Shown piece by piece: positions 22,118-52,296 of a stretch of DNA of 64,000 nucleotides. The stretch lies in IMG/VR virus record IMGVR_UViG_3300029305_006500. One strand, 5' to 3'. The position numbers and the translations under genes are program-made. Position 1 is the first letter of the stretch. Each line of letters opens with the position of its first letter. This stretch comes from a virus (Duplodnaviria > Caudoviricetes). The notes beneath the pieces were generated by a model. That model searched no databases, was not told the origin of the DNA, and saw nothing but the letters and a program-made list of their open reading frames with translations.

Positions 22118-23323
22118 ATGACAAACATAAAGGTAGTAATGGGGGCATCTTTTGGAGATGAAGGTAAAGGTTTGATGTCAGATTATTTTTGTCATCAAGC
22201 AGTTTCTAAAGGAGAGGATTGTGTAGTAGTACTTTCTAATGGTGGTGCTCAGAGAGGACATACTGTAACTCTTGCAGATGGGACTCAACATGTATTCCAT
22301 CATTTTGGGTCAGGTACTTTTACTGGTGCGCGTACTTATTGTATTAGTGACTATATCCTTAACCCCATGACCTTTGTGAAGGAGTATCAAGAACTTGCTC
22401 AGCTTGGATATAGACTAAGCGATATGATCATAGAAAGCCGCTGCCGTTGGTCTACCCCATTTGATATGATTACAAATCAAATTCTTGAAGCCTCTCGTGG
22501 AGATGCAAAGCATGGAAGCTGTGGTATGGGCATTTGGGAGACTTCAGTGCGATATCAACGTTTAAAAAATCAGCCTACATTGGAAGAGTTTGATCTTTGG
22601 CCTAGAGATAAGAAGCTAGAATTTCTGAATGATTGTAGAACTTTTATGATTACAAGACTTGCTGAGGAAGGTGTATCTTATATTCCGGATGAGTGGTATG
22701 AAATTGTACATTCTGAAACTCTGCTCCAGCATTTTATAGATGATGTGCGGTTTATGATAAAGCATACGATACCTGCTTTTTTAGTTCCACTTACAAGCTT
22801 TAAAAATATTGTATTTGAAAATGGACAAGGCTTGTTACTTGACCAAGATCTTACTTTTTATGGAAATAATACTACACCGAGTGCCACAGGTTCTACAAAT
22901 GCTATTAAAACTATTAATAAATACTTTAGTAGGCCTTCTGATGAACTTGCTATAGAAATGTGTTATGTGTCTAGAACTTATATGACTAGACATGGGGTAG
23001 GTCGTTTTGAAACTGAGTGCAAAAAAGAGCTTTTGAATAAGGATATGTTTGATGAGACTAACGTTACCAATCCTTTTCAAGATAATTTACGTTATGGAGA
23101 GCTTATTTTGCCTAATCTTGTTACAAGGGTGTCACAGGATTTTAGTCGTGCCTGTGATCTACTTGTGAATAAAAAACATGCTTCTTTAGTTGCTAATGTA
23201 GCAATGACGCATACAAATGAATATGAAGTAGATTATGCAAGAATTAGAGATAAGCTAATTAGTAATATCTATACTTCTAATACTAGAACAAGAGATTCTG
23301 TAAAGTTATTTACCGAATTTTAA
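22118..23323 (+). CDS. Adenylosuccinate synthetase-like protein (divergent PurA)
   Basis: GASFGDEGKG, NGGAQRGHT, GSCGMGI, FENGQGLLLD, RTYMTRHG. Confidence 0.88.
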   Translation: MTNIKVVMGASFGDEGKGLMSDYFCHQAVSKGEDCVVVLSNGGAQRGHTVTLADGTQHVFHHFGSGTFTGARTYCISDYILNPMTFVKEYQELAQLGYRLSDMIIESRCRWSTPFDMITNQILEASRGDAKHGSCGMGIWETSVRYQRLKNQPTLEEFDLWPRDKKLEFLNDCRTFMITRLAEEGVSYIPDEWYEIVHSETLLQHFIDDVRFMIKHTIPAFLVPLTSFKNIVFENGQGLLLDQDLTFYGNNTTPSATGSTNAIKTINKYFSRPSDELAIEMCYVSRTYMTRHGVGRFETECKKELLNKDMFDETNVTNPFQDNLRYGELILPNLVTRVSQDFSRACDLLVNKKHASLVANVAMTHTNEYEVDYARIRDKLISNIYTSNTRTRDSVKLFTEF

Positions 23324-49524: not shown

Positions 49525-50402
49525 CGGGCCTGACCGATAACTTCCCGTAAGGGAATGAAAGGAGTATACTGACAAGACTCCGCTGTGATGAGCAGTACCT
49601 CAGGCAATGTGTGACGGGACCTGTAAGAATTGAAAAGATTCTTACGAATATGCTAACCCCATGTTCTAACTTGTCAATGATGAAATGAATGAGATTAGTT
49701 GAGGGCCAACTGGTTGAACTAATTTCTGCTCTCGCAAGGAGCTGGTTTCAATGCAAAAGGATTTGATGAGGTAAGGTAAGCTACAGGAAGTAAAATAGTT
49801 CAAGTTTTAGCAAGCAAGGGCGACTTCCATTTATATCTGCTATGGTGGATATAAGAAATACAAGTACGAAGCCAAGGAAAGTATTGAAGGCGGGTAGCAT
49901 TCTTGCACTCAAAAGGTGTGAGAACTACAACAATAGTCTGTCTTCCGTCAAATCTCAACTTAGCGTGGGTTCGAGCCCCACCCGGCGTGCCAATTTTATC
50001 TTATAGAGATAATTAGCACTTATCTCTTGCATACGCCGGTAGCTCAGTAGGCAGAGCGGTTGTCATAGGAAAACAATGTCATGAGTAAAAACCTATTGTT
50101 GGAAACAAAGAAAAGTGTCTTAAGCCCAGAGTGGTAAGCAATCTGGGATATTAGGTGTCACAAGCATCTAGTATTTGATTGAAACGAATCTATAGAGGCG
50201 TAGCAACCTCGAACAGCCCGCAAGGTTGATAGTGGAGTGATAATCGAGTAATTGTTTCTGTAAAGGCGAAAGCAAGCCTGGAGCCCTTGTGCTGGGGTGA
50301 CGAATTGCAGGCATGAGCGGTACTTCCCAAAAGGAAGTGGAAAAGTGACTAAAAAATAAGGTCATTAAGCCGTAGCAATCATAAGATGTATTCTCAGTCT
50401 TT
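49525..50402 (+). ncRNA. GOLLD-like large RNA (about 880 nt)
   Basis: Starts at promoter 49509-49522; 5' CTGA pairs with 3' TCAG; many GNRA/GCAA hairpins, two CAAAAGG loops; size and phage-tRNA context fit GOLLD (from memory). Confidence 0.65.
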
Positions 50403-50726: not shown

Positions 50727-50803
50727 GCGTCCTTAGCTCAGCGTATAGTAGCAACGGTTTTCTAAACCGTAGGTCCTAGGTTAGAATCCTAGAGGGCGTG
50801 CCA
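50727..50803 (+). tRNA. tRNA-Arg(UCU)
   Basis: ACGGT-TTTCTAA-ACCGT, GCCA; atypical D and T loops. Confidence 0.82.
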
Positions 50804-50906
50804 AAGATGCTGGCGTTTTAGGTAAAAAGTGTGAATGCTAGGAACTTTGGGTGTATAGTTTTCTAACCCTCCGAGTCAGCATCTTATTCTTTTTAAGGAG
50901 TTTATT

Positions 50907-51119
50907 ATGAAAGTTTATGAAGTAGAATTTCATTATGGAAGAAATACTTATGAATTTCTGTCAGACCTTGATCTTGAAGTAGGTAAAACTTATAGACTTA
51001 CTAATGATTTAGGACATACATATAAAAGTAGAGCGATTATTTTAGATAAAAAAGATGTTTCCGTATTCTCTGGTACAATGCGAGAAATTGTAGATGCTGA
51101 TGAGGAAATGCCATGGTAA
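50907..51119 (+). CDS. Hypothetical protein
   Basis: AAGGAG RBS. Confidence 0.7.
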   Translation: MKVYEVEFHYGRNTYEFLSDLDLEVGKTYRLTNDLGHTYKSRAIILDKKDVSVFSGTMREIVDADEEMPW

Positions 51120-51156
51120 GTGATTAAAATATAAAAAATATATTGTATAATAAAAT

Positions 51157-51432
51157 AGAGCCAATACTTATTTCTTAGATATTTTGGGTATATATTTTAA
51201 AAGTTTGGCCAAATATTATGCTAAATAAAATAGAGCTTGTGCTTATTTCGTACATATTATAGAAAATTTTAAAAAGGGTATAGCCAAGCCAAATTATTTA
51301 AACGTAGAGCTTATGCTTATTTCTTAATGCAGGTGCCGACATGTCGGCAGAAAAATCAGCTAAGCCTTATATAGAGTCTATGCTTATTTCTTTTGACTTA
51401 AATTATATAATAGATAGTGTGATAGCTAGACC
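51157..51432 (+). repeat. Tandem array of four minimal Y-like family I RNAs (51157-51210, 51232-51290, 51306-51366, 51373-51432)
   Basis: AGA-N5-T-RCT-TATTTC...AGY-N5' with compensatory changes; promoter at 51143-51156. Confidence 0.8.
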
Positions 51433-51444
51433 ATAATTTAATAC

Positions 51445-51519
51445 TGCGGAGTGGAGCAGTCTGGTAGCTCGTCGGCCTCATAAGCCGAAGGTCGTTGGTT
51501 CGAATCCAACCTCTCGCGT
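51445..51519 (+). tRNA. tRNA-fMet-like (CAU), 3' end degenerate
   Basis: TGGAGCAGTCTGGTAGCTCG D arm, TCGGC-CTCATAA-GCCGA; no encoded CCA. Confidence 0.75.
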
Positions 51520-51521
51520 CC

Positions 51522-51596
51522 GCTGGCATGGCGCAATGGTAGCGCACCTCACTTGTAATGAGGTGGTTGTGGGTTCGACTCCCTCTGCCAGCTCCA
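51522..51596 (+). tRNA. tRNA-Thr(UGU)
   Basis: CCTCA-CTTGTAA-TGAGG, TCCA. Confidence 0.92.
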
Positions 51597-51604
51597 ATTT
51601 TTTT

Positions 51605-51637
51605 AGGATTAAGTTGTAAAAACTTAATCTTTTTTTT
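51605..51637 (+). terminator. Rho-independent terminator ending the RNA island
   Basis: AGGATTAAGTT/AACTTAATCTT plus T-tract. Confidence 0.75.
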
Positions 51638-51651
51638 ATTATCAATAATAC

Positions 51652-51659
51652 GCTAAATT
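51652..51659 (+). promoter_or_regulatory. Class-2 (putative late) promoter motif GCTAAATT
   Basis: Recurs intergenically at 34928, 38757, 43882, 46457, 51220, 52741 and 353 (minus strand). Confidence 0.55.
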
Positions 51660-51723
51660 AAATAGACAGATTGCTTTTACGCTCTCTGTGCAAAATATCT
51701 AATTTAAGGGAGCGTATACGCCA

Positions 51724-52296
51724 ATGGAAAACTTAGGAGGAACAATTTTAGCTACAGTAATTTCTGTAGTAGTTACTCTGGTTGTAACTCTTGTTTTTAA
51801 TAAACTAGTTGCAATACCAAAAGTGAGAAGACAACAAGAGGAAGGAGAGCGTCAAGAGCGTGAAGCAATGAAACAAGACATAAATGAACTAAAAGCTAAG
51901 ACCTGTGAATTACAAGTGGCGATTGATGCTTTACCTGGATATCGAGCTCAAAGCTTACAAATTCAGTCAGAACTTAGGAATGCAGATAATGCAATAATTG
52001 ACGCTTGTTCTGCTATTAAAGATAGTATTGAACGGCTAGAACATAGAGAAAGAAATGCTCTTCGTATGAAGATACTAGCTGAATATCGTTTATTTACAGA
52101 TACACATAAAAATCCAATGAAAGCTTGGACCGAAATGGAACATCACGCTTTCTTTGAAGTAGTACGAGATTATGAAGCACTTAATGGTAATGATTACGTA
52201 CATTCTACCGTATTGCCTGCAATGAACGAATTAAATATTATTCTTATGGAAGACCATGCAGGGTTAGCTAAACTTATGGCGAGTCGCCAAATGTAA
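51724..52296 (+). CDS. Membrane-anchored coiled-coil protein (holin/antiholin-like)
   Basis: N-terminal TM; YEALNGNDYVH motif typical of phage lysis-cassette proteins. Confidence 0.65.
   Translation: MENLGGTILATVISVVVTLVVTLVFNKLVAIPKVRRQQEEGERQEREAMKQDINELKAKTCELQVAIDALPGYRAQSLQIQSELRNADNAIIDACSAIKDSIERLEHRERNALRMKILAEYRLFTDTHKNPMKAWTEMEHHAFFEVVRDYEALNGNDYVHSTVLPAMNELNIILMEDHAGLAKLMASRQM

Follow-up and report, generated by a model that had tools for sequence, protein, structure and literature searches.

What are the four short units that stand in tandem inside a tRNA operon of this large, uncultured phage, and what reads them? The window analysed here is the whole stretch of DNA, 64,000 nucleotides long, and it forms part of a 146.5-kb IMG/VR fragment judged to be about 63% complete. 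All coordinates refer to the window. An earlier, sequence-only reading of this DNA had described the units as minimal Y-like RNAs in a CRISPR-like arrangement, remote from a gene that it called TROVE-like. Our analysis confirmed the observation and partly supported the interpretation.

Four tandem units in a tRNA operon

We searched positions 50800–51800 of the window for direct repeats. A 22-nt core was present four times, at 51156, 51231, 51305 and 51372, and the steps of 75, 74 and 67 nt between copies agree with the period of about 70 nt read from the letters alone. All four units lie on the + strand. Unit 1 (51157–51211, 55 nt) has the stem GCCAA/TTGGC and an AU-rich loop with UUUGGG, and unit 2 (51232–51291, 60 nt) has the stem GCTTG/CAAGC and an AU-rich loop. 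Unit 3 (51306–51367, 62 nt) has the stem GCTTA/TAAGC, and its loop is a 6-bp GC hairpin with a tetraloop, whereas the loop of unit 4 (51373–51433, 61 nt; stem GTCTA/TAGAC) is again AU-rich. The earlier count of four units stood, as did its description of three AU-rich loops and one GC hairpin, and its length range of 54–61 nt needed a small correction.

The likeness between the units lies at their ends. Each begins with AGAG, four variable letters, T and RC, followed by TTATTTC; at the 3′ end come AGY, a stretch complementary to the unit's variable letters, CC and, in most cases, A. A perfect 3′ partner for the unit's own stem letters was present in 4/4 cases, which bears out the claim that one handle is common to the whole set. 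The 5′ motif AGAR-N4-T-RCTTATTTC has seven copies in the 64-kb window, all of them on the + strand, compared to 0.01 copies expected from shuffles. Tandem Repeats Finder did not report the units, because the likeness between them is confined to their ends. No open reading frame of at least 50 aa was found over 51120–51477 on either strand. Neither ARAGORN nor Rfam RF00005 detected a tRNA cloverleaf within 51157–51433, and an Rfam scan of the array at permissive thresholds (E up to 10) returned only noise.

A promoter-like site, P1, is located at 51124–51151 (+) and consists of TTAAAA, a 16-nt spacer and TATAAT (10/12 matches). The array begins about 5–6 nt past the TATAAT hexamer, and transcription therefore likely starts at the AGAG of unit 1. 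A second promoter-like motif, TGCTAAAT, lies at 51219–51226 (+), 5 nt before unit 2, and belongs to repeat family D5. Both motifs had been named in the sequence-only reading and were recovered here. The TGCTAAAT word also precedes internal units in the arrays of other phages, and it is not kept at the corresponding spot in L086, the contig with the closest related array. We also observed an AT-rich block of 23 nt in three copies (51137–51159, 51212–51234 and 51644–51666), consisting of a TATAAT-/TAAAT-type hexamer and then AAATAGA. This block is probably a phage promoter consensus, because its third copy precedes the open reading frame at 51724.

Downstream of the array, tRNA-Met (CAT; 51445–51521, +) begins 11 nt past unit 4 and is abutted by tRNA-Thr (TGT; 51522–51596, +). 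A likely terminator follows at 51605–51638 (+), where an 11-bp AT-rich hairpin precedes a T-run; the hairpin appeared in both the MFE and the centroid folds of 51157–51645. A consensus terminator scan missed it because it contains only 2 GC pairs. The tRNA-Met is probably carried on the same transcript as the array. Handle RNAs of relatives lie 2–4 nt from tRNA genes, like the gaps between one tRNA and the next, and we infer that a single precursor is processed into unit-length RNAs, RNase P defining the junction ahead of tRNA-Met. About 760 nt before the array, the tRNA island also contains a GOLLD RNA (49885–50400, +) that matches Rfam RF02032 over its full length with 155 bits.

Pairing and covariation in the handle

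In the handle, the 5′ and 3′ ends of a unit pair in a helix of 1+5+3 bp, with A3 and U9 bulged on the 5′ strand. The heptamer UUAUUUC that follows the stem is unpaired and nearly invariant. When folded alone, all units closed by one common helix, in which a bulged U separates 5 bp from 3 bp. The single-unit folding energies were no better than those of shuffles (z −0.1 to −1.3), and a fold of the whole precursor did not recover the unit stems, so that covariation carries the entire case for them.

To measure pairing without bias, we collected every distinct 5′-motif site from the window and 21 related loci, with no requirement for pairing at selection. A perfect 7-bp partner was located within 12–170 nt at 55 of the 57 sites, compared to 11.2 ± 2.6 when the stem letters were taken from another site. 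These sites comprised 20 distinct stem sequences, and the two that were unpaired both fall in coding sequence. In an alignment of 32 short units, 6/8 pairs vary on both sides, and pairing drops to 3–58% when the partner is shifted by 1–3 columns; the 100% pairing of the alignment itself follows in part from the way its units were chosen, which was by pairing. Positions G2 and C65 are invariant in this alignment and probably form a ninth pair across the bulged A3. Adjacent short units hardly ever share stem letters (the single exception is L096). Differing letters in neighbours would help each unit to fold independently within the precursor, which we offer as an observation and not as a test.

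Units 1–4 each contain the 5′ motif, the 5+3 bp stem and the bulged U of the handle-RNA family as modelled in R1, with scores of 56.8 bits (E 6e-12), 58.6 bits (E 2e-12), 47.9 bits (E 1e-9) and 57.4 bits (E 4e-12), respectively. Their stems covary as do those of the family, and a 667-aa protein of the kind that accompanies it is encoded on the same genome and strand (gene 32881–34884, +). We concluded that 51157–51433 very probably contains real RNA genes of the handle family.

Handle RNAs beside a candidate partner protein

The handle closes seven RNAs in the window: the four array units and three RNAs at the gene of the 667-aa protein. One of the three is a short handle RNA at 32748–32807 (+; R1 60.4 bits), about 75 nt upstream of the gene. 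The other two, at 35033–35177 (+) and 35195–35311 (+), contain a permuted tRNA-like body in the order T arm, stem, D arm. These bodies matched positions 23–88 of Rfam YrlA with 32.3 and 34.8 bits, respectively, below the gathering score of 69. The TTGTATAAT word of P1 also precedes the RNA at 35033, and TTGTATTATATAAT, a close variant of TTGTATAAT, precedes the RNA at 32748. Model R1, which was built from short units, detected no handle copies in the 146.5-kb record beyond those in the window.

Several variants of handle RNAs and their surroundings were observed. In L054 (1432–1611), and also in L071, L107 and record G005, a short handle unit is nested within a permuted tRNA-like handle RNA, at a point where the acceptor-like stem of the latter is opened, and a 35-nt insert in the RNA at 35033–35177 looks like a decayed nested unit. 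The body of a handle RNA in L031 (18332–18438) is a nearly complete, unpermuted tRNA with the normal order of D arm to T arm. In the window, 35430–35760 (+) holds tRNA-like halves around an insert of about 250 nt with a sub-threshold group I intron match (28.6 bits at 35495–35688); the arrangement resembles a tRNA gene interrupted by a group I intron. The following stretch of about 1.3 kb (35760–37065), which separates the handle RNAs from the first tRNA, has no convincing open reading frame and no Rfam match. Its only frames are two of 51 and 77 aa that overlap on opposite strands close to the 3′ end, and large structured RNAs, one or several, may be encoded there. Elsewhere, 22118–23323 (+) encodes an adenylosuccinate synthetase homologue (Pfam E 2e-32); an enzyme of this type, PurZ, is used by phages with 2-aminoadenine genomes.

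The presumed partner of the handle, encoded at 32881–34884 (+), is a helical-repeat protein with a C-terminal TerD-fold domain. Sequence searches of Pfam, PHROGs, the PDB (sequence and profile) and the ESM Atlas returned no annotation for it, Pfam gave no match for 42 of its diverse relatives, and no recognised RNA-binding domain was found in the protein. A deeper-alignment model of the N-terminal 430 residues reached a pLDDT of 92, and a Foldseek search with this domain gave no match. In NCBIfam, the MXAN_6230/SCO0854 RING-domain family matched residues 275–576 at E 1e-21, far below its cut-off, and our literature search found no paper on this family. Directly upstream of the locus, 31240–32178 (+) encodes a fusion of a Pnkp-like polynucleotide kinase, an enzyme of the RNA end-healing type, with an HD/HDIG domain. 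RtcB was not found in the 146.5 kb.

The sequence-only reading had placed the array 16 kb from a TROVE-like gene. The distance was correct (16.3 kb, from the end of the gene at 34884 to the array start at 51157), and the assignment to TROVE did not hold. A six-frame search of the 146.5-kb record, about 63% complete, detected no PF05731 (TROVE) at E up to 10, with control genomes positive. An hhalign comparison of the 667-aa family profile (A3) with a Ro60 profile made from mycobacteriophage Bxz1 Ro and 30 relatives (A6) gave a probability of 0.03%, and the C-terminal vWA domain of Ro60 is absent from the protein. Because both Pfam and hhalign were negative, we consider that the protein is not detectably TROVE and that any resemblance to Ro60 is at most one of shape.

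We counted more than 480 close homologues of the 667-aa protein and, at E up to 0.001, 1191 cluster representatives; they come from metagenomic contigs, many of them 200–440 kb in length. Cultured phage records contained no homologue; tblastn returned only weak C-terminal matches to hypothetical proteins, and blastn of the array region against phage records matched only tRNAs. Handle RNAs were present on the strand of the gene in all 21 IMG/VR loci that encode a homologue, and each of these loci had a short unit shortly upstream of the gene, the counterpart of 32748–32807. Conversely, the protein was encoded in 5/5 of the records that hold handle RNAs and are at least 90% complete. Since the array is 16 kb away from the gene, its linkage to the protein is through the common handle and not through adjacency. 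Because the same handle is found on the tRNA-mimic RNAs that flank the protein gene, the units are probably extra partners of an undescribed RNA–protein particle.

Comparison with known RNAs

Bacterial Ro60 (Rsr) binds tRNA-mimicking RNAs of the YrlA type and a second, module-less RNA (YrlB, Yrn2), whose gene neighbours that of YrlA or Yrn1; these Y RNAs are encoded beside rsr, sometimes from one precursor, as for YrlA and YrlB of M. smegmatis (Chen et al. 2014, PMC4201824). The 5′ strand of the Y-RNA closing stem carries the motif GNCGAAN0-1G, or CGAA (PMC4201824, PMC12135203). A close known system is the Ro60 of Thermus phage phiLo with its RNAs Yrl1 and Yrl2 (PMC12135203; PDB 9L5Y).

Like YrlB and Yrn2, the array units are small RNAs whose paired ends form a bulged helix with a conserved motif on the 5′ strand. 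In both cases larger siblings add a tRNA-like module, several such RNAs occur per genome, and the setting is one of RNA repair, as at the handle locus. In contrast to YrlB and Yrn2, the array has no GNCGAA/CGAA, and the 5′ strand of every unit reads AGAG-N4-U-RCUUAUUUC. Further, YrlB and Yrn2 lie beside the Ro60 gene, whereas the units are arranged in tandem in a tRNA operon, 16 kb from a protein gene of another family. The terminal bulged helix that characterises Y RNAs is present in the array units, and no Ro60/TROVE gene was found near the array or elsewhere in the 146.5-kb record at its completeness of about 63%. The YrlA model (RF02553), searched at E up to 10, had no match in 51100–51460. 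The two gene-proximal handle RNAs have the permuted T arm, stem and D arm in common with YrlA, but their closing stem is unlike the model, and the array units are without any tRNA-like body. Because the units are set apart by their handle sequence, by the protein family and by their arrays in tRNA operons, we take them to work like module-less Y RNAs and not to be members of that family. Likewise, the particle as a whole is probably built like Ro60 and its Y RNAs without being detectably related to them. We found no description of the handle-RNA family in Rfam or in the literature, of which our coverage was incomplete, and the best reading is that the family is uncatalogued and that the units are its module-less members.

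Non-coding passengers of phage tRNA clusters have a precedent. The species 1 and 2 RNAs of phage T4 (rnaC and rnaD) are small, stable non-tRNA RNAs in a tRNA cluster and are freed by tRNA-type processing. They are single genes, with no handle family tied to one protein, and their likeness to the array units, compared by description only, consists of location in a tRNA cluster and inferred processing of the tRNA type.

The handle RNAs could be real and yet be read by something other than the 667-aa protein: by host Ro60/Rsr, by a tRNA-processing or tRNA-modification enzyme, or by a host tRNA-targeting defence nuclease for which they serve as decoys. We regard this as unlikely. RNA and protein co-occur strictly in all loci and near-complete records examined, one unit lies upstream of the gene in 21/21 related loci, and the handle is without the motif by which Ro60 makes contact (PMC4201824). 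These points stand against the location of the array, within a tRNA operon and 16 kb away from the gene, the tRNA parts displayed by family members, and a 667-aa protein without a known RNA-binding domain, all of which another reader would suit. Docking of handle RNAs on the 667-aa protein seems to us reasonably probable.

Arrays upstream of tRNA-Met in related phages

Whole-record searches of relatives revealed additional remote units, and arrays within tRNA clusters. Pattern scans of viral and metagenome contigs yielded 42 distinct arrays of at least two units. In the metagenome scan, the general tandem pattern was found in 28 stretches, and the word composed of the promoter plus unit 1 had no match. 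At least 15 of the 42 arrays are followed by tRNA-Met(CAT) 6–20 nt past their end. In two others (L087 and L099) a tRNA-Thr lies 81 nt past the array, and ARAGORN has probably missed a tRNA-Met at these places. In 23/42 arrays there is no tRNA within 40 nt, and many of these arrays are beside the protein gene.

The arrays that precede tRNA-Met have a usual order of units. The first has a GCTTG stem and an AU-rich loop, the second a GCCTA stem and a small hairpin bearing GGG, and the third a GCTCA or GCTCG stem and a GC-rich hairpin whose own stem covaries between phages; the fourth unit is about 100 nt long. The array of the window is a compact version of this order, with four short units and the GC hairpin kept at position 3. 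The loops had been called unrelated to each other, and this is not simply so, as a given type of unit occupies the corresponding array position in other phages.

The 6–20 nt spacing to tRNA-Met(CAT), kept in at least 15 distinct arrays, together with the framing of array and tRNAs by one promoter and one terminator, raises the question of whether the units are cis leader elements that tune the folding, stability or maturation of the tRNA-Met/tRNA-Thr precursor, and are by-products of it instead of free-standing RNAs. Handle RNAs, however, also occur beside the protein gene without a nearby tRNA (the 23 arrays above) and between other tRNAs, and an invariant unpaired heptamer with two conserved bulges suits the site of a trans-acting ligand better. 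We consider such a leader role rather improbable.

One further set of repeats was considered for the family and rejected. A complete 63-kb phage with terminal repeats (L010, record G008) contains at least eight tandem repeats of 66 nt, with GCTTATTTC inside a similar bulged stem, and these repeats have the word CTTATTTC in common with handle RNAs. The phage is without the 667-aa protein and the repeats scored poorly with R1; they are probably unrelated.

Divergence of the loops

The closest related array that we found is on L086, a 7.4-kb contig from the metagenome of the relative G006 that contains a counterpart of the 70-aa open reading frame upstream of the array (87% aa identity), a four-unit array and tRNA-Met. 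Compared between the window and L086, the handles were 89% identical, the P1 promoter 85%, the span of the open reading frame 77% (gap columns included) and tRNA-Met 75%. The loops were only 39% identical, and spacers 1 and 2, of 20 and 18 columns, were 35–50% identical. The handle differences in units 2 and 4 were compensatory. The gene-proximal tRNA-mimic RNAs were 97–98% identical to those of a relative from the same metagenome as L086, whose protein is 81% identical. A check of loop variability across strains had been proposed in the sequence-only reading. Between these related arrays, with loops at 39% and handles at 89%, the tips of short units change far more rapidly than the handle and the segments around it. 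Such fast change could reflect weak constraint or diversification.

Faster divergence of the loops than of their flanks (39% vs 77–89%), and a constant handle around a variable insert, are also what one would expect of CRISPR-like or antisense guides that steer the particle to complementary nucleic acids, as had been suggested before. We compared five short loops with the 146.5-kb record of the phage itself; the longest sense or antisense matches were 10–13 nt, and shuffled loops did equally well. Unit types are position-specific across phages, and several loops form hairpins of their own, with stems that covary from phage to phage. Nor does the array have the near-identical direct repeats with unique spacers of a CRISPR, for its constant part consists of two pairing halves around the insert, and the stem letters differ between units. 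The chance-level matches within the phage's own 146.5 kb, the position-specific unit types and the self-folding tips leave the guide reading unsupported, and we judge it very improbable.

The nearest-relative contigs, G001 and G007 (protein 81% identical), end about 30 nt past the 70-aa open reading frame that precedes the array, and these ends (L081 and L078) at the expected array start suggest that the repeats break assemblies. Although two contigs break within about 30 nt of that point and promoter-like words precede units 1 and 2, it is most doubtful that the units are DNA-level repeats (promoter-plus-stem-loop cassettes or recombination sites) and not RNA genes, given compensatory changes over 20 stem sequences with G-U pairs permitted on one strand only, the location of all copies on the strand of the tRNAs, and the tRNA-like bodies in family members.

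Discussion

The explanation that we propose builds on features computed here, namely the repeats, the covarying stem, membership in the handle family, the synteny with tRNA-Met, the linkage of RNA and protein across phages, and the faster divergence of the loops. The four units would be genes for non-coding RNAs of about 55–62 nt, module-less members of the handle family. Transcription would proceed from the promoter at 51124–51151, possibly helped by the second one at 51219, through tRNA-Met and tRNA-Thr to the hairpin and T-run at 51605–51638. The resulting precursor would be cut to unit length by tRNA-processing and other host nucleases. The handle would then serve as a docking site for the helical-repeat/TerD protein, and the short units would be alternative ligands of this protein with small, fast-evolving tips. 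Their most likely role, in a context of tRNAs or of RNA repair, would be that of gates, or competitors of the tRNA-mimic RNAs, or else of adaptors that link other partners.

We hold this explanation as a whole, from a tRNA-type precursor that yields unit-length RNAs, through their docking on the 667-aa protein, to a role as gates or adaptors, to be moderately probable as a reading of sequence. The specific role of the short units, whether as gates or as adaptors, is unproven. A bolder form of the adaptor idea is that the RNAs of the arrays are adaptors, exchangeable for one another, of a particle that is analogous but not homologous to Ro60 and its Y RNAs, and that their tips choose a host RNA, a tRNA-targeting defence factor or a nuclease. 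We consider this form speculative and distinctly unlikely; if it were true, the handle would load the TerD-capped protein, and the content of the array would track an arms race with the host.

If the handle does dock the TerD-capped protein, large phages would carry a second, independently evolved particle on the plan of Ro60 and Y RNAs. Each genome would supply such a particle with many more RNA partners, seven of them in the window, and some would come from tRNA operons. The short units would be its simplest natural ligands, and they would offer a minimal handle for binding and structural work, as well as a test of gating or retargeting. The content of phage tRNA clusters is usually read as adaptation to codon usage only. 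The position of the units before tRNA-Met would make them a new class of non-tRNA passenger in these clusters.
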